From: Candidatus Nanopelagicales bacterium
GTDB taxonomy: Bacteria; Actinomycetota; Actinomycetes; S36-B12; CAIYMF01
Direction: 5' to 3'
NCBI GenBank assembly: GCA_025351185.1
Contig: JANXWJ010000094.1
Location: 5,172 to 69,171, forward strand
Length of the DNA stretch: 64,000 nucleotides
This document shows, one piece after another, positions 52,892-60,212 of this stretch. A program made the translations under genes and the position numbers. Under the pieces are notes generated by a model. That model was not told where the DNA came from and did no database searches. It saw nothing but the letters and a program-made list of their open reading frames with translations. Each line of letters begins with the position of its first letter. The stretch's first letter is position 1.

Positions 52892-53710
52892 GTGACCGAC
52901 TCCTCTGACCTGCTGATGTCTGATCCCGCTGCTGCCGCTACGGAGGCCGCCGCCGAGCTGGCCCGCCTGACCGGCGTCGAGCGGCACGACGTGGCGCTCG
53001 TCCTGGGCTCCGGGTGGGTGCCCGCCGCCGAGCTCATCGGCGAGACGGTCGCCGACCTGTCGATCACCGACCTCCCGCACTTCGCGCCGCCCGCTGTCGC
53101 CGGTCACGCCGGCCGCGTGCGCAGCGTTCGCGCCGGCAGCACCCGCGCCCTGGTCTTCCTCGGGCGTACGCACTACTACGAGCAGCGCGGCGTCGAGGCG
53201 GTCGTGCACGGCGTGCGCACCGCCGCCGCGGCCGGCTGCCGCGTCATCGTGCTGACCAACGGGTGCGGTGGCCTCGACCCCACGTGGACACCCGGCACAC
53301 CGGTGCTCATCAGCGACCACCTCAACCTCACGGGCGCATCCCCTCTGCGCGGTGCGACATTCATCGACCTGACCGACCTCTACTCCTCGCGGCTCCGCGC
53401 TAAGTGCCGCGAGATCGAGCCGTCGCTGCCCGAGGGCGTCTATGCGCAGTTCCGCGGTCCGCAGTACGAGACACCGGCCGAGGTGCGCATGGCCGGCGTC
53501 ATCGGCGCCCAGCTGGTCGGGATGTCGACTGCTCTCGAGGCGATCGCGGCGCGCGAGGCCGGCCTGGAGATCCTCGGTCTGTCACTCGTCACCAACCTCG
53601 CCGCCGGCATGACCGGCGAGCCGCTCAACCACGAGGAGGTCCTCGAGGCCGGCCGGGCGGCAGCCGAGCGCATGGGTCACCTGCTCGCCCAGGTGGTGCC
53701 TGCCCTGTGA
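52892..53710 (+). CDS. punA: Purine-nucleoside phosphorylase
   Basis: VLGSGW, GHAG, GRTHYYE, TNGCGG, ISDHLN, GPQYETPAE, VGMST, VTNLAAG, NHEEV. Confidence 0.96.
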   Translation: MTDSSDLLMSDPAAAATEAAAELARLTGVERHDVALVLGSGWVPAAELIGETVADLSITDLPHFAPPAVAGHAGRVRSVRAGSTRALVFLGRTHYYEQRGVEAVVHGVRTAAAAGCRVIVLTNGCGGLDPTWTPGTPVLISDHLNLTGASPLRGATFIDLTDLYSSRLRAKCREIEPSLPEGVYAQFRGPQYETPAEVRMAGVIGAQLVGMSTALEAIAAREAGLEILGLSLVTNLAAGMTGEPLNHEEVLEAGRAAAERMGHLLAQVVPAL

Positions 53711-55404
53711 GCGTCGACGCCGCGCTCGTGCCGGATCCCACCTTGATCGACCGGGCTCGCGCCTGGCTCGCCGACGACATCGACCCTGACACGCGTACGG
53801 CTCTCGACCGCCTGCTCGACGCCGCCGGGAGCGGCGACGAGGGAGCAGCCACCGAGCTTCTCGACGCGTTCGACGGACGGCTGGAGTTCGGCACGGCCGG
53901 TCTCCGCGGTGCTCTCGGTCCCGGCCCGAACCGGATGAACCGCGCCGTCGTGACGAGGGCGGCCGCGGGTCTCGCTGCGTATCTCCACGCGGCGACACCG
54001 GGCGGCGAGACCCGACCGGTCGTCATCGGCTACGACGCGCGTCACAAGTCCGACGCGTTCGCGCGTGACACCGCCGAGGTGCTGGAAGGGGCCGGGATCC
54101 ACGCGCTCGTCCTTCCGCACGCGCTGCCGACTCCCGTTCTCGCGTATGCGATCCGACACCTCGGTGCGGCGGCGGGCGTCATGGTCACCGCGAGCCACAA
54201 CCCGCCTCAGGACAACGGCTACAAGGTCTATCTCGGTGACGGCACCCAGATCGTGCCGCCCTCCGACAGCGACATCAGCAGGCACATCGATGCAGTCGGT
54301 GCGGTGCGCGACGTTTCCCGCGGCGACGGTTGGACGACGTTGGGCGGCGACGTGCTCGCGGCCTATCTCGACGCCGTGGTGTCCCTCGTCGCGACAGACT
54401 CCCCGCGCGCGGTCACGATCGCCTACACGCCGATGCACGGTGTCGGCGGCGACGTGATGGTGCAGGCGCTACTGCGAGCCGGGTTCCCCGCGCCGCGCGT
54501 GGTCGCAGCGCAGTTCGCGCCCGACCCGGACTTCCCCACGGTGTCCTTCCCCAACCCCGAGGAGCCGGGTGCGATGGACCTCGCCCTCGAGGAGGGTGTC
54601 GAGGTCGACGCTGATGTCGTCATTGCCAACGACCCCGACGCCGACCGGTGCGCCGCAGCGGTGCCGACCAGCGACCGCGGTGCGCACGGCGGACCCGCCT
54701 ATCGCATGCTCCGCGGCGACGAGCTCGGCTGGCTGCTCGGCTGGTGGCTGCACGAGCGCGGCGCGACCGGAGTCTTCGCCAACTCCATCGTGTCGTCGTC
54801 GCTGCTCTCGAAGATGGCGGCGTCCTACGGCGTGGAGCATCGCGAGACGCTCACCGGGTTCAAGTGGATCGGGCGCATCCCCGGGCTCGCGTTCGGCTAC
54901 GAGGAGGCGCTCGGCTACTGCGTCGACTCCGCCGATGTCGCAGACAAGGACGGCGTGAGCGCCGCTCTGCGCGTGGTCGAGATGGTGGCATGGCTCAAGG
55001 CGCAGGGGCGCACGGTGCACGACGTGCTCGACGACCTCGCCGTCGAGTACGGGGTGCACGCGACCGATCAGCTGTCGGTGCGCGTCGACGACCTCTCGCT
55101 CATCAGCGCCGCGATGTCACGGCTGCGGGCCACACCACCGACCGAGGTCGCCGGGCTCGAGGTGGAGGCGTTCGAGGACCTCGAGGACGGCCTCGACGGT
55201 CTGCCCCCGACCGACGGGGTCCGGCTGCGCCTCGCGCAGCACACCCGGGTCATCGTGCGTCCGAGTGGCACGGAGCCCAAGCTCAAGTGCTATCTCGAGG
55301 TGGTCGTGCCGGTGACGAGCGACGTCGAGGCCTCCCGACTGATCGCAGCGCACCGTCTCCAGGAGCTCAAGTCCGGCATGGCCGCGACCCTCGGTCTGCG
55401 CTGA
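53707..55404 (+). CDS. Phosphomannomutase/phosphoglucomutase family (phosphopentomutase-like context)
   Basis: LEFGTAGLRG, VTASHNP, DPDADR, GYEEALGY, RPSGTEPKLKCY; GTGA overlap with punA. Confidence 0.94.
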   Translation: MSVDAALVPDPTLIDRARAWLADDIDPDTRTALDRLLDAAGSGDEGAATELLDAFDGRLEFGTAGLRGALGPGPNRMNRAVVTRAAAGLAAYLHAATPGGETRPVVIGYDARHKSDAFARDTAEVLEGAGIHALVLPHALPTPVLAYAIRHLGAAAGVMVTASHNPPQDNGYKVYLGDGTQIVPPSDSDISRHIDAVGAVRDVSRGDGWTTLGGDVLAAYLDAVVSLVATDSPRAVTIAYTPMHGVGGDVMVQALLRAGFPAPRVVAAQFAPDPDFPTVSFPNPEEPGAMDLALEEGVEVDADVVIANDPDADRCAAAVPTSDRGAHGGPAYRMLRGDELGWLLGWWLHERGATGVFANSIVSSSLLSKMAASYGVEHRETLTGFKWIGRIPGLAFGYEEALGYCVDSADVADKDGVSAALRVVEMVAWLKAQGRTVHDVLDDLAVEYGVHATDQLSVRVDDLSLISAAMSRLRATPPTEVAGLEVEAFEDLEDGLDGLPPTDGVRLRLAQHTRVIVRPSGTEPKLKCYLEVVVPVTSDVEASRLIAAHRLQELKSGMAATLGLR

Positions 55405-55463: not shown

Positions 55464-56009
55464 ATGACGACGACGGGGGTCCTTGCCGGTTGGTACACCG
55501 ATCCGCTCGAGCCAGCGACGACGCTGCGCTACTGGAGCGGTGCCGAGTGGACCGAGCACGTCGCACCGCGGGCGCAGGTCGCGCCACCCTCGACGGGCTA
55601 TGACCCGTCGGCGCCGATGCCCTACGCACGACCACCGTACGGACAGCCGCCCCACGGAGCCGCCGCTCCTGCCTGGGCGACGCACGGATCAGTGCCTCAC
55701 GGATCGGCACCCTACGGACCACCGAGCGGCCAGGGCGAGCATCCCTCCGACGCCCTGCACTGGATCGTGCCGACCGGACGCTCCTGGCAGACCATCGCGG
55801 CGGGCTATGTCGGGCTGGTCTCGTTGCTGCTCTTCCCCCTCGGCCCGGTCGCGATCGTCCTGGGCGTCCTGGGTCTGCGTGCCGCGTCGCGGCAGGGATC
55901 GCACGGACGCGGTCGGGCCATCTTCGGGATCGTCGCCGGCGTCATCGCCACCATCATCGGGATCGCGGTCCTCATCGACGTCCTCAACGGACCCGGCCAC
56001 CCCCGCTGA
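55464..56009 (+). CDS. DUF2510 + DUF4190 membrane protein
   Basis: AGWYTDP....LRYWSGAEWT; Pro-rich linker; two TM segments with GRGRAIFGI. Confidence 0.85.
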   Translation: MTTTGVLAGWYTDPLEPATTLRYWSGAEWTEHVAPRAQVAPPSTGYDPSAPMPYARPPYGQPPHGAAAPAWATHGSVPHGSAPYGPPSGQGEHPSDALHWIVPTGRSWQTIAAGYVGLVSLLLFPLGPVAIVLGVLGLRAASRQGSHGRGRAIFGIVAGVIATIIGIAVLIDVLNGPGHPR

Positions 56010-56112: not shown

Positions 56113-56127
56113 ACTGGTCCAACCAGT
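56113..56127. promoter_or_regulatory. FadR-type operator
   Basis: Perfect palindrome ACTGGT-cca-ACCAGT (TGGT-N3-ACCA core), 36 nt upstream of the FadR-family gene. Confidence 0.75.
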
Positions 56128-56163
56128 TGACCGCAAGGTCAGGCTGGGCCACACTCCTGCGTC

Positions 56164-56934
56164 ATGACGGTCCCTCGACCTGCCGGCCCCGGCTATCTCG
56201 CCGATCCCGTGCTGCGCCCTGCGACGGTCGCGGATGCTGTGTTCACCCGACTGCGCGACGCTGTGCTCTCCGGCGACCTGGCTCCCGGTGACCCGCTCCC
56301 GGGCGAGCGGGACCTGGCCGAGTCGTTCGGCGTCAACCGCCACGCGGTCCGCGAGGCGCTACGCCGCCTCGAGCAGGTCCGGCTCGTGGCGGTGCGCCAG
56401 GGCGAGCAGACCCGGGTCCTGGACTGGCGGCGTACGTCAGGGCTCGATCTCGTTCTCGGCCTCGTCGACGGCGACGTGCTCGACACCCCGACCCTGACGC
56501 GCGACATGCTCGAGATGCGCGCGTGTCTCGGTGCCGACGCGGCTCGACTGGCCGCCGATCGGGCCGATCCGGCAGCGCGCCGAGCGGTGATGGACGCCGT
56601 GCGCGCCTATGACGATGCAGTGTCCGACATCGCCGACCTGCACGACGCCGACATCGCGTTCTGGCGGGCCATCGTGGAGGCCAGCGACAACGTCGCCTAC
56701 CTGCTGACGTTCAACAGCCTGGTCAGCCACGCGTTGGCGATCGCGCCCGTGCCGAGCGACCACCGCGCCGACGAGCTGCTGGACATCGCGTCGCACCGCC
56801 AGCTGGCTGGCCACATCCTCGAAGGACGGTCGGCCGACGCGCACCGCGTGGCGACGTCGCTGCTCACCCGCAGCATCCCGCTGCTCGAGCACCACGATCC
56901 CGTGACACCCTCTGCCGCAGGAGAACGCACATGA
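56164..56934 (+). CDS. GntR/FadR-family transcriptional regulator
   Basis: PGDPLPGERDLAESFGVNRHAVREALRRLE wHTH; FCD with D..FW..IVEASDNVAY.L..NS. Confidence 0.93.
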   Translation: MTVPRPAGPGYLADPVLRPATVADAVFTRLRDAVLSGDLAPGDPLPGERDLAESFGVNRHAVREALRRLEQVRLVAVRQGEQTRVLDWRRTSGLDLVLGLVDGDVLDTPTLTRDMLEMRACLGADAARLAADRADPAARRAVMDAVRAYDDAVSDIADLHDADIAFWRAIVEASDNVAYLLTFNSLVSHALAIAPVPSDHRADELLDIASHRQLAGHILEGRSADAHRVATSLLTRSIPLLEHHDPVTPSAAGERT

Positions 56935-57776
56935 TCATCATCTTGGTCGCCATCCCGATGTTCGTGCTGTTCCTCGCCATCGAGGCGATCTCCTACAAGT
57001 ACCTCCCCGCCGACGACGAGCTCGGCTATGAGCTGCGGGACACCGCGACGAGCCTGTCGATGGGTCTCGGCTCTCGCGTGTGGGGACTGCTCTGGGACGT
57101 CGTCGCCCTGCTCGGGCTCAGTGCGGTCTATGCCCTCTCCCCGTTGCGCATCGAGATGTCGCACTGGTGGGCGTGGGTGCTGCTGCTGTTCGGCGAGGAC
57201 CTCTGCTACTACGCGTTCCACCGCGGCTCGCACCGCATCCGGCTGTTCTGGGCCAGCCACGTCGTGCACCACTCCAGCCAGCGCTACAACTTCTCGACCG
57301 CACTGCGTCAGGAGTGGACCGGGCTCGGCACCTTCATCTTCTGGATCCCGTTGGCAGCAGTGGGATTCCCGGTGTGGGCGATCTACCTGCAGCAGTCGGT
57401 CTCGCTGCTCTACCAGTTCTTCCTGCACACCGAGCGCATCGACAAGCTGCCGCGCATGATCGAGGCGGTCATGAACACGCCGTCGCACCACCGCGTGCAC
57501 CACGGCATCAACAACCACTACCTCGACAAGAACTACGCCGGCATCCTCATCATCTGGGACCGCCTCCTCGGCACGTTCGAGCCCGAGGTCGAGCGGCCCC
57601 GTTACGGCATCACCACGCAGCTGACCACCCACAACCCAATCCGGGTCGGCTTCCACGAGTGGTACGCGATCGGCCACGACGTACGCCAGGCGTCGCGCCT
57701 GCGGGATCGTGTCGGCCACGTGCTCCGGGGTCCCGGCTGGGCGCCGGCCACGGGCGATCGCGTTGTCGCCGCATGA
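56931..57776 (+). CDS. Fatty-acid hydroxylase/sterol desaturase family, alkylglycerol monooxygenase-like
   Basis: His boxes YYAFHRGSH, SHVVHHSS.RYNFSTALRQ, LYQFFLHTE, NTPSHHRVHHG...DKNYAGILIIWDRLLGTF; ATGA overlap with FadR. Confidence 0.92.
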   Translation: MIIILVAIPMFVLFLAIEAISYKYLPADDELGYELRDTATSLSMGLGSRVWGLLWDVVALLGLSAVYALSPLRIEMSHWWAWVLLLFGEDLCYYAFHRGSHRIRLFWASHVVHHSSQRYNFSTALRQEWTGLGTFIFWIPLAAVGFPVWAIYLQQSVSLLYQFFLHTERIDKLPRMIEAVMNTPSHHRVHHGINNHYLDKNYAGILIIWDRLLGTFEPEVERPRYGITTQLTTHNPIRVGFHEWYAIGHDVRQASRLRDRVGHVLRGPGWAPATGDRVVAA

Positions 57777-58483
57777 CCGCACTCGACAGCGCCCTGCCCA
57801 CGGAGCGCCGCCGGATCCTGGTGGCGTTCCTCGGGATAGCGGTCGTCGATGTCGTCGCCGAGCTCACCGACCTCGATGTGATTGCCAACCTGGCCAAGCC
57901 ACTGCTCATCCCGGCGCTCATCTGGTGGGTCCTCGCCGTACTCGGTCCCGCGGCCCCGCGGCTCCTCGTCGGTGGCCTGGTGCTCGCCTGGCTCGGCGAC
58001 CTCGCGCTCCTGCTCCCCGGTGACACGGCGTTCATCGTCGGGCTGCTGCTCTTCCTCGGCATGCAGGTCTGCTACTCCCGCGGGTTCATCGGTCTCGGCG
58101 GGATCGCGGCACTGCGATCGGCGCGGTGGCTGCCGGTCGTGGGTGCGGCTCTCTGGGTCGGCCTCAACGTCGCGCTCGGCCCGTCGCTCGGCTCGCTGCG
58201 TCTGCCGCTGCTGGTCTACAGCGCGGCGCTCACCACGATGGCCGTGCTCACGTTCGGCGTCTCACTCGGGGTCCACAGCCCTCGCCTCGGCATCGGCGGC
58301 GTGACCTTCCTCGTGTCCGACCTGCTCATCGGCCTCGACGCCGCAGGGATCGACGTACCCCTGCACGGTCCCCTCGTCATGGCGACCTACGTCGTCGGGC
58401 AGCTGCTGATCGTCACCGGCTGGGTCGCCGCACAACGGCTCGCCACCACCGAGACCGCTGCCGTCGCGACCGCAGAGGCGTAA
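57773..58483 (+). CDS. Lysoplasmalogenase (YhhN family)
   Basis: KPLLIP, WLGDLALL, PLLVYSAAL..M, FLVSDLLIG, VMATYVVGQ; ATGA overlap with the desaturase. Confidence 0.9.
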   Translation: MTALDSALPTERRRILVAFLGIAVVDVVAELTDLDVIANLAKPLLIPALIWWVLAVLGPAAPRLLVGGLVLAWLGDLALLLPGDTAFIVGLLLFLGMQVCYSRGFIGLGGIAALRSARWLPVVGAALWVGLNVALGPSLGSLRLPLLVYSAALTTMAVLTFGVSLGVHSPRLGIGGVTFLVSDLLIGLDAAGIDVPLHGPLVMATYVVGQLLIVTGWVAAQRLATTETAAVATAEA

Positions 58484-58590: not shown

Positions 58591-59985
58591 TCAGGGCCGA
58601 GGTCTCGGTGGGGTGAACGCCCAGTAGCCGGTCGCGGTCGGCGGCAGATCGGTCGCGGTGATGACCCAACCGCCCTCGTGGACGTAGTGGTGATGGAGCG
58701 GGCAGAGCAGGACGAGGTTGTCGATGTCGGTGGCGCCCCCGCTCTCCCAGGGGTTCACGTGGTGGGCGTGGGTGCGGCTGACGTCGACCCGGCAGCCGGG
58801 GAAGCAGCAGTGCCGGTCGCGGTGCTCCAACGCCCGACGGAGCCGCGGCGACACGGTGCGCTGCTCGCGTCCGACGTAGAGCACGTCGTGGGACGCCTCT
58901 CGCAACCACGCCACCAGCTCGGCGAGGCTGTCTCCCCGGTCGGAACAGGTGAGGCGCCGCGCGAGGATCCCGGTGACCATCGCATCGCACATCATCCGAC
59001 GCACGGTGGTGGACGGCAGGAGGATCGGATCGTCGTGGCCGGGGACGAGCAGCTCTCCTCCGCGTCCGGAGAGGATGTCGGCGAGGTCGGCGGTCAGCAC
59101 GATGTGCGGCTTGGCCTGGTGACGCGTGCCCAGGAGCCCGGTCTCGAGCTGGCGGCGCGAGAGCTCGACGAGCGCCAACGCCATCAGGTGGGCACGCCTC
59201 GGCCGGCGCATCCGGCGGCCCTCCGCCGACTCCGGGTCGACGCCTTCGGGCAGGCGATCCTCCACGGGCAACGACCCCGTGCGGAACCACTCGTCGATGA
59301 TCTGGTCCAACGCCGTGGCCACGGTGGCGCCGCCCTCGGCGTCGAGCCATCCGTCGACTCGGACCATCGCACCTGTCGCAATGACCCGCATCGTCTGGTC
59401 CTCGTGCGCGGCGAGCGCTGCCGCCGTGGTGCCGTCAGCGTCGAGGTAGAACCGGATCCGCGTGGCTGCCTTCTTCACCTTTGCCACCGTCGCGGTGCCG
59501 GCCAGCTCGACCAGGACCCGCTCCGCAACGTCCCGCTGCTCCGCGAGGTGCTCCTTCGGGAGGCCGCGCAGCGCAGTGTCGAGACCGCAGGTGATCTCCC
59601 GCGCATGTGCGCCCGTGATCAGACCGGCAAGCAGCGCCTCCCGGGTGACGGGGTAGTCCGAAGCCAGCGCCGACGCACGCGCGAGGATGGTCGTCGCATC
59701 GGATCGGGAGATGCCGACCTCGTTCTCCAGCCACCGCGGGGTCGACACGTATCCCTCGGCTGCGAGCGCCCCGGAGCGGTGCAGCACCCCAGCGCCGATC
59801 GTCATCACCGACGTCGCAGCATCGGCAGACTGTGCCGCGGAGGAAACGAGGTCTGACAGCGAGGCCGCGGACACCGCTGTCCACGCGCCCGCCGACGTCA
59901 GCGCCGCCAACCGCGACGTGACCTGGGCGAGCTCACCCAACGTGACCACCAGATCGGTGGCCAGCGTGGACGGGTGCGAGGTCAT
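58591..59985 (-). CDS. DUF222 + HNH endonuclease (13E12-repeat family)
   Basis: LDAEGGA....ALD, RRMMCDA, VGREQR.....RRALEHRDRHCCFPGC....HAHHVNPW..GGATDIDNLVLLCPLHH..VH. Confidence 0.92.
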   Translation of the reverse strand: MTSHPSTLATDLVVTLGELAQVTSRLAALTSAGAWTAVSAASLSDLVSSAAQSADAATSVMTIGAGVLHRSGALAAEGYVSTPRWLENEVGISRSDATTILARASALASDYPVTREALLAGLITGAHAREITCGLDTALRGLPKEHLAEQRDVAERVLVELAGTATVAKVKKAATRIRFYLDADGTTAAALAAHEDQTMRVIATGAMVRVDGWLDAEGGATVATALDQIIDEWFRTGSLPVEDRLPEGVDPESAEGRRMRRPRRAHLMALALVELSRRQLETGLLGTRHQAKPHIVLTADLADILSGRGGELLVPGHDDPILLPSTTVRRMMCDAMVTGILARRLTCSDRGDSLAELVAWLREASHDVLYVGREQRTVSPRLRRALEHRDRHCCFPGCRVDVSRTHAHHVNPWESGGATDIDNLVLLCPLHHHYVHEGGWVITATDLPPTATGYWAFTPPRPRP

Positions 59986-60212
59986 GCCAGAAACACTACC
60001 GACCACCTCCGACAGTGAACCCCCGCCGAGAGCCGTTGGGCAACAACTACTTTCAGCGATCTATCACTACCGTCCGAGATCACTCCGAGGGCGCACGCGT
60101 CCCACCTTGCAGCTGTGGACGACGCGCCCATTGACCATCCTGTGGATGCCGAGCACCAGTGCAAGGGCGAACGGGGCCGAGGTCGAGGCCCGGCTCTTCC
60201 CATCGACTCACC

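Follow-up and report, generated by a model that had tools for sequence, protein, structure and literature searches.

The window analysed here is a 64,000-nucleotide stretch of a 3.88 Mb actinobacterial metagenome-assembled genome (MAG) that is 95.7% complete. It contains three consecutive genes on the forward strand, which encode a GntR-family regulator of the FadR/FCD subfamily (256 amino acids, 56164–56934), a membrane di-iron monooxygenase of the FA_hydroxylase superfamily that resembles alkylglycerol monooxygenase (AGMO) (281 amino acids, 56931–57776; PF04116, 90 bits), and a YhhN-family membrane protein of the lysoplasmalogenase family (236 amino acids, 57773–58483; PF07947, 101.6 bits against a cut-off of 25.6). 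Functional coupling of the hydroxylase and YhhN is well supported, because the two co-occur across genomes, lie side by side recurrently in several phyla and are found naturally fused. A self-regulated three-gene operon is the best explanation of the locus, and we propose with moderate confidence, by analogy with characterised relatives of both enzymes, that its products would cleave ether lysolipids through two parallel activities.

Pairing of the hydroxylase and YhhN genes across bacteria

The genome carries a single PF04116 gene and a single PF07947 gene, and these are adjacent. Co-occurrence was scored in 301 genomes of the class, evenly drawn. The hydroxylase orthologue was patchily distributed, being found in 44 of the 301 genomes and in 14 genera. 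YhhN was present in 35 of the 44 hydroxylase-bearing genomes compared with 32 of the 257 genomes without the hydroxylase (odds ratio 27, p 4e-19), and the association was also seen at the genus level (8/14 genera with the hydroxylase versus 18/136 without it; p 4e-4).

The hydroxylase-then-YhhN order accompanied by the regulator was observed in the window, in Micromonospora and in genome G080, and one metagenomic relative has the same adjacency without the regulator. In Streptomyces, YhhN follows the hydroxylase in 53 of 79 loci, likewise without the regulator, and a gene for a Zn-dependent alcohol dehydrogenase comes after the pair on the same strand in 25 of the Streptomyces loci. Neighbours in other lineages include thiolase, acyl-CoA synthetase, thioesterase and alcohol dehydrogenase genes. 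YhhN is missing beside many of the GntR-hydroxylase pairs, and in three relatives whose hydroxylase is 73–81% identical to that of the window (L002, L003 and L082) the hydroxylase stands alone at the same chromosomal position, without the regulator or an adjacent YhhN. Since the regulator, the hydroxylase and YhhN occur in all combinations, the three-gene form of the window is one variant of a modular system. The three-gene synteny pointed out in the initial annotation recurs in Micromonospora and G080, and other lineages lack the regulator or an adjacent YhhN.

A genome scan with human AGMO detected homologues in Bacteroidota, Myxococcota, Acidobacteriota and Alphaproteobacteria, many of which span the AGMO C-terminal region. 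Among the 80 loci most similar to human AGMO (L177–L256), YhhN lies directly downstream of the hydroxylase in nine, mostly in Bacteroidota. In one Alphaproteobacteria MAG (L242), the two domains are fused in a 577-residue open reading frame (ORF), with the Pfam FA_hydroxylase domain at residues 89–221 and the YhhN domain at residues 385–559. When the protein database was searched for fusions with hydroxylase, linker and YhhN concatenated as the query, the sole matches were slightly longer hydroxylases with a single domain, and no match was obtained when this search was limited to the YhhN part of the query. A tree of 207 members of the family placed human AGMO among the bacterial clades and distributed the linked state over at least six clades separated from one another, with 15 changes by parsimony.

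Other features of these loci were recorded. At a further Alphaproteobacteria locus (L252), the 3′ portion of a long hydroxylase ORF is overlapped by a YhhN-coding sequence in a different frame, perhaps because a frameshift or an assembly error has split a second fusion. Within L177–L256, Bacteroidota and Myxococcota carry near-full-length AGMO homologues that match the human protein from residue 43 to approximately 400–440, and L181 gives a weak match to the Pfam AGMO C-terminal domain.

Conserved residues of the two membrane proteins

The human AGMO reference sequence was verified by exact look-up as NP_001004320/Q6ZNB7. In BLASTP, the window hydroxylase was 40% identical to it over 272 residues (E 3e-59), with query residues 7–273 aligned to AGMO residues 43–307, and the match runs well past the Pfam domain to a common GPGW motif. 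The conserved blocks through which the desaturase-family gene had initially been linked to metazoan AGMO are real. The eight-His motif of the hydroxylase (H97, H101, H110, H113, H114, H187, H190 and H191) corresponds to H132, H136, H145, H148, H149, H221, H224 and H225 of AGMO, and the equivalents of AGMO H201, Q162, D233, N235, Y236, W243 and D244 are all kept. These 15 residues, nine His and six others, are the ones reported to be essential to human AGMO activity (PMC7911779, PMC3304488), and all of them are retained in an alignment with one 1-residue indel; H201, W243 and D244 are generic to animal fatty acid hydroxylases (PMC3304488). The 15 positions are invariant or nearly so across 176 bacterial homologues, mostly actinobacterial, every one of which is 37–50% identical to AGMO. 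Judged by its sequence, the hydroxylase is a genuine AGMO homologue.

An AlphaFold2 model of the hydroxylase was confident (pLDDT 85.7, pTM 0.85). A Foldseek search of the PDB with this model gave no match below E 1, and a sequence search of the PDB found no relatives of either the hydroxylase or YhhN. An OlsE identity was considered for the hydroxylase and rejected, as the match scored 42 bits against a cut-off of 475.

For YhhN, eight catalytic residues have been proposed in TMEM86A/B, namely K43/53, G81/87, D82/88, H104/108, G182/175, S189/182, D190/183 and Y213/206 (PMC11994398). The window protein keeps seven of the eight (K42, G75, D76, G175, S182, D183 and Y206) and has Gln98 at the position of the His. 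When 77 YhhN sequences from the retrieved loci were aligned, K42, G75, D76, S182, D183 and Y206 were invariant; the presence of G175 was established from the window sequence. The spacing of these residues was compared with that in Mycobacterium tuberculosis Rv1401 (K68, D102, H125, D211 and Y234; PMC9052158), and the K-to-D distance of 34 and the D-to-Y distance of 23 are the same in both proteins. Bacterial YhhN proteins with demonstrated lysoplasmalogenase activity act alone on lysoplasmalogens, and mycobacterial YhhN guards against host lysoplasmalogen (PMC9052158).

Regulator, operator and operon arrangement

The regulator consists of a GntR winged helix (Pfam GntR, 70 bits) and an all-helical FCD/FadR_C effector domain (FCD, 46 bits; FadR_C, 26.7 bits against a cut-off of 23.6). 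Its best matches in the PDB were an Rv0494/FadR chimera (9wfi, E 3e-19), followed by E. coli FadR (E 7e-12) and Vibrio FadR (approximately 1e-11), and NanR and PdhR ranked behind these FadR-type proteins. By the offset of the PDB alignment, Arg is found in the regulator at the FadR DNA-contact positions R35, R45 and R49. On the basis of these similarities, FadR-like is a fair label. The name FadR itself and an acyl-CoA ligand are not established, because the regulator scores 66.6 and 65.5 bits against the NCBIfam FadR equivalogs, far below the cut-offs of 189 and 249, and because its alignment to FadR stops at residue 186, short of the acyl-CoA contacts G216, S219 and W223 (PMC4259882).

A TGGT-N3-ACCA operator had initially been noted upstream of the operon. 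Its presence was confirmed, and the element is part of a longer 12-base palindrome at 56113–56127, which reads ACTGGTCCAACCAGT and consists of perfect 6-bp arms (ACTGGT and ACCAGT) around a 3-bp spacer (CCA). It lies 37 bp upstream of the regulator ATG and is where the GntR/FadR-like repressor is presumed to bind. Taken alone, the 8-base core TGGTN3ACCA is not significant, because about one occurrence per 64 kb is expected by chance. The full 12-base form is found at no other place in the 3.88 Mb genome, and a consensus (C/T)AACTGGT-N3-ACCAGTTG was found upstream of orthologous GntR genes in 22 of 27 loci, these coming from Micromonospora, Gordonia, Mycolicibacterium, Nocardia, Nocardioidaceae, Streptomyces and Solirubrobacterales. 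In addition, the operator shares the core CTGGT-N3-ACCAG with the FadR site of E. coli fadBA, as given by primer sequences (PMC4259882). These data retain one part of the initial description of the operon as FadR-regulated, namely a FadR-like regulator with a FadR-type operator core. The regulator scores below the equivalog cut-offs, and regulation of this kind extends to only part of the family, since the Streptomyces and Bacteroidota pairs have no GntR gene.

A whole-genome search with the operator found no further convincing sites; the one-mismatch copies examined were apparently intracoding, and none lay beside a lipid gene. Because the operator is unique and the one-mismatch sites are apparently intracoding and away from lipid genes, the regulator appears to act locally, on its own operon only. 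In three Solirubrobacterales loci (L037, L070 and L080), two tandem CTGGT-N3-ACCAG operators, 22 bp apart from centre to centre, are found upstream of the GntR gene; the window has one.

Phylogenetic footprinting of the aligned upstream regions pointed to a promoter next to the operator. A putative −35 hexamer, TTGACC (56128–56133, forward strand), abuts the operator and overlaps its extended arm, and in most orthologous loci TTGAC likewise directly follows and overlaps the right arm of the operator. Conservation across loci further suggests a −10 hexamer, CACACT (56151–56156, forward strand), 17 nucleotides past the −35 element and 7 nucleotides before the ATG. The aligned loci share the order of TTGAC, a spacer of 17–18 nucleotides, an nAnnnT hexamer and a start codon 7–10 nucleotides further on, and the nAnnnT element at this distance was seen in more than 10 orthologous loci. 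A generic sigma-70 promoter and terminator scan of the region made no call, so that the promoter rests on cross-species conservation. Since the −10 element lies only 7 nucleotides before the ATG, the mRNA looks leaderless or nearly so, and binding of the repressor would be expected to occlude the −35 element.

The three genes are chained by ATGA start/stop overlaps, at 56931–56934 between the regulator and the hydroxylase and at 57773–57776 between the hydroxylase and yhhN, exactly as the initial annotation had stated. The yhhN frame is open from 57080, and the ATG at 57773 was chosen as its start on the basis of homologues and the ATGA junction. In the window sequence, a GGAG motif precedes the start of the hydroxylase gene and no such motif precedes yhhN, which fits translational coupling.

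By Pfam, the operon is preceded by genes for PNP and a phosphomutase (52892–55404) and, between the phosphomutase gene and the regulator, by a gene for a DUF2510/DUF4190 membrane protein (55464–56009, forward strand). It is followed on the reverse strand by a DUF222/HNH endonuclease gene (58591–60006), located between yhhN and genes for a GNAT protein and a PLP decarboxylase. The relatives L081 and L082 have no DUF222/HNH gene at the equivalent position, and this gene therefore looks like an inserted HNH element of a mobile type. They also have no DUF2510/DUF4190 gene at this position, and the hydroxylase there comes after the phosphomutase or GNAT gene. The surroundings of the hydroxylase in this lineage (52892–55404 and beyond 60278 in the window; L081 and L082) form a synteny resembling nucleoside catabolism, with PNP and phosphomutase and then GNAT, PLP decarboxylase, DeoC and two aldehyde dehydrogenases. 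A functional tie of the operon to the PNP, phosphomutase, DeoC and aldehyde dehydrogenase neighbours was rejected, because this synteny is kept with or without the regulator and YhhN.

Proposed function, alternatives and known systems

In the proposed mechanism, the GntR repressor of the FadR subfamily would bind the palindrome at 56113–56127, which abuts and overlaps the −35 element, and would block transcription of the apparently leaderless mRNA until a lipid-derived ligand frees it. By analogy with AGMO, the hydroxylase would use its di-iron centre to hydroxylate C1′ of the 1-O-alkyl chain on a lyso-ether lipid or an alkylglycerol, and the resulting hemiacetal would decay to a fatty aldehyde and the glycerol moiety. 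YhhN, by analogy with TMEM86A/B, Legionella YhhN and Rv1401, would hydrolyse the vinyl-ether bond of lysoplasmalogens, again yielding a fatty aldehyde. Together, the two enzymes could serve the breakdown or detoxification of exogenous ether lysolipids. We favour this reading because both partners independently point to ether cleavage with release of a fatty aldehyde. The alcohol dehydrogenase, thiolase, acyl-CoA synthetase and thioesterase genes found as neighbours in other genomes fit aldehyde-producing lipid catabolism, and being under a local repressor is typical of operons that are induced for catabolism or detoxification. Furthermore, secretion of enzymes acting on plasmalogens and lysoplasmalogens is known from actinomycetes (PMC5095149).

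Several observations weigh against cleavage of ether lysolipids. At the level of the genomes, YhhN is not adjacent at about 70 of the 80 nearest-relative loci and at 26 of the 79 Streptomyces hydroxylase loci, a genome of the same genus carries the hydroxylase and YhhN on separate contigs, and about half of the YhhN-bearing genomes of the class have no hydroxylase. Ether-lipid synthesis is not known in these actinobacteria, and the substrate would therefore have to come from outside the cell. The hydroxylase ends at residue 281 with no match to PF24858, the AGMO C-terminal domain comprising transmembrane helices 6–9. At the position of AGMO Glu137 it has Arg102 (codon 57234–57236). The conserved His of YhhN is replaced by Gln98 (codon 58064–58066) in a clade formed by the window, its close relatives, Micromonospora and G080. 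Finally, PRUB680 of Pseudoalteromonas rubra, for which alone among bacterial AGMO-like enzymes a reaction has been demonstrated, is a prodigiosin cyclase that does not cleave ethers (cited in PMC6667630).

The two substitutions can be set against what is known of these positions. In YhhN, the His is retained in Streptomyces, and the distance from D76 to Q98 is 22 compared with 23 from D102 to H125 in Rv1401. His-to-Ala mutants of TMEM86A/B retain more than 10% of activity, whereas Lys, Asp and Tyr mutants are nearly dead (PMC11994398). Because the His-to-Ala mutants remain active to this extent, the window YhhN looks catalytically competent. In AGMO, Glu137 is tied to the affinity for tetrahydrobiopterin (Km) and is reported to be unique to AGMO among animal fatty acid hydroxylases (PMC3304488, PMC3617469). 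At the equivalent position, 62 of 91 close relatives have Glu, the Micromonospora three-gene operons among them; mycobacteria, Nocardia and Gordonia as a group have Thr, and Streptomyces has Val. This variation among apparent orthologues argues that the residue is not critical in the bacterial enzymes. No PTPS gene was found in the genome, and a homologue of pterin-4a-carbinolamine dehydratase is present. Since the marker Glu is replaced by Arg here and by Thr or Val elsewhere, and since no PTPS gene was found, the electron donor is probably not tetrahydrobiopterin.

The best-placed alternative, which we still consider unlikely, is that the pair acts on a lipid or metabolite other than an ether lipid. 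In this case, hydroxylation, desaturation or cyclisation by the AGMO-like enzyme would take place on the alkyl chain of another amphiphile (for example a secondary metabolite, an aminolipid or a membrane lipid of the cell itself), and YhhN would process or transport a related compound. PRUB680 is a precedent for a bacterial AGMO-like enzyme with such a substrate (PMC6667630), and other bacterial proteins of the 'sterol desaturase family' hydroxylate ornithine lipids (the OlsE match being weak here) or tetramate macrolactams. The variation of the Glu137 position among E, R, T and V across lineages would also be in keeping with other substrates, as would the small number of YhhN proteins whose substrates are known. 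On the other hand, the pair is not located in biosynthetic clusters and forms a self-contained two-gene unit in Bacteroidota, and in the window it is under a local repressor of the kind typical of catabolic or detoxification operons. The independent indications from both partners of ether cleavage to an aldehyde, and the alcohol dehydrogenase, thiolase and acyl-CoA synthetase neighbours that fit catabolism, likewise speak against this alternative.

A bolder proposal, to which we assign a low probability, is that the AGMO-like enzyme and YhhN constitute one two-step, tetrahydrobiopterin-independent ether-cleaving machine that shares a 1′-hydroxyalkyl hemiacetal or a vinyl-ether intermediate. 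Such a machine would account for the fixed gene order and the natural fusion. The corresponding rival to two parallel enzymes, a sequential pathway on one substrate, is likewise considered unlikely. It supposes that the AGMO-like enzyme makes either a vinyl ether, as a 1′-desaturase, or a 1′-hydroxy hemiacetal, and that YhhN finishes the cleavage within a single ether-cleaving machine; YhhN could do so in either version, because hydration of a vinyl ether passes via the same hemiacetal. The hydroxylase-then-YhhN order is fixed in every lineage examined and is the order within the one fused polypeptide, and fusions typically join consecutive steps or subunits. It is also established that the FA_hydroxylase superfamily includes both hydroxylases and desaturases. 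Nevertheless, all residues essential to hydroxylation by AGMO are kept at 40% identity, and the hemiacetal produced by AGMO is thought to decompose spontaneously. Nine of the 44 hydroxylase-bearing genomes have no YhhN at all, so that the hydroxylase can work alone, and YhhN proteins are active alone on lysoplasmalogens (PMC9052158).

That three unrelated genes were packed together by chance beside a fortuitous palindrome is very improbable. In its favour, a TGGTN3ACCA match is expected about once per 64 kb, and L002, L003 and L082, which are close relatives, have neither the regulator nor YhhN beside the hydroxylase. Against it, the same gene order is found in several phyla and in a fusion, the co-occurrence is significant among genomes (p 4e-19) and genera (p 4e-4), the operator is kept at 22 of 27 loci and has no second copy in the genome, and both junctions are ATGA overlaps. 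Chance adjacency of the hydroxylase and YhhN is excluded for practical purposes.

In a literature search, we found no paper on bacterial AGMO activity or on an AGMO-YhhN pair, in keeping with the remark in the initial annotation that no characterised bacterial example was known. To our knowledge, active AGMO has never been obtained in pure form, and its structure has not been solved. According to reviews, no other alkylglycerol-cleaving enzyme is known, and AGMO is discussed there as an enzyme of animals (PMC3617469, PMC7911779). The operon is not a categorically new system; what is new here is a bacterial short-form AGMO-like enzyme, probably independent of tetrahydrobiopterin, that is coupled in an operon to YhhN under a FadR-like switch. 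A homologue of 281 residues with 40% identity may be an easier handle on the chemistry of AGMO and the cofactor question. Homologues of this kind are frequent in Streptomyces and Micromonospora, which can be cultured, and they are linked genetically to a lysoplasmalogenase-family protein and to an uncomplicated repressor-operator switch. If the operon does cleave ether lysolipids, it would explain how bacteria of soil and water recycle or detoxify ether lipids that originate from animals, anaerobic bacteria and myxobacteria, and it would extend the idea of bacterial defence against ether lysolipids, which so far rests on the YhhN proteins of Legionella and M. tuberculosis. If instead the two-step machine were real, it would represent a widespread, unrecognised bacterial route for the degradation of saturated alkyl ether lipids, and the structure and mechanism of AGMO could for the first time be approached through a tractable model, the short bacterial enzyme.

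Comparison with known systems places each component within an established family. The regulator has the winged-helix GntR domain and helical C-terminal domain of E. coli FadR and M. tuberculosis Rv0494, and its operator has the core of the E. coli fadBA site. It differs from E. coli FadR in that the acyl-CoA-binding part of FadR is unaligned, in its score below the equivalog level and in its apparent control of its own operon only. YhhN belongs to the same Pfam family as TMEM86A/B, Legionella YhhN and Rv1401, shares seven of eight proposed residues and has nearly the spacing of Rv1401, but it carries Gln for His and is borne on an operon, coupled behind an AGMO-like gene, whereas the characterised bacterial YhhN examples are described without an AGMO-like partner. 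PRUB680, compared by description only, is a member of the same enzyme family as the hydroxylase and performs C-H activation on an alkyl chain; by the same description, it acts on a pigment and has neither a link to YhhN nor a FadR-like repressor. Compared with animal AGMO/TMEM195 (EC 1.14.16.5), the window enzyme is bacterial and has 281 amino acids instead of the 445 of the human protein, without the PF24858 domain, with Arg in place of Glu137 and with no PTPS gene found in its genome. It nevertheless shares with the animal enzyme the family sequence, the eight-His motif, the ninth His, the six further essential residues and the GPGW motif.

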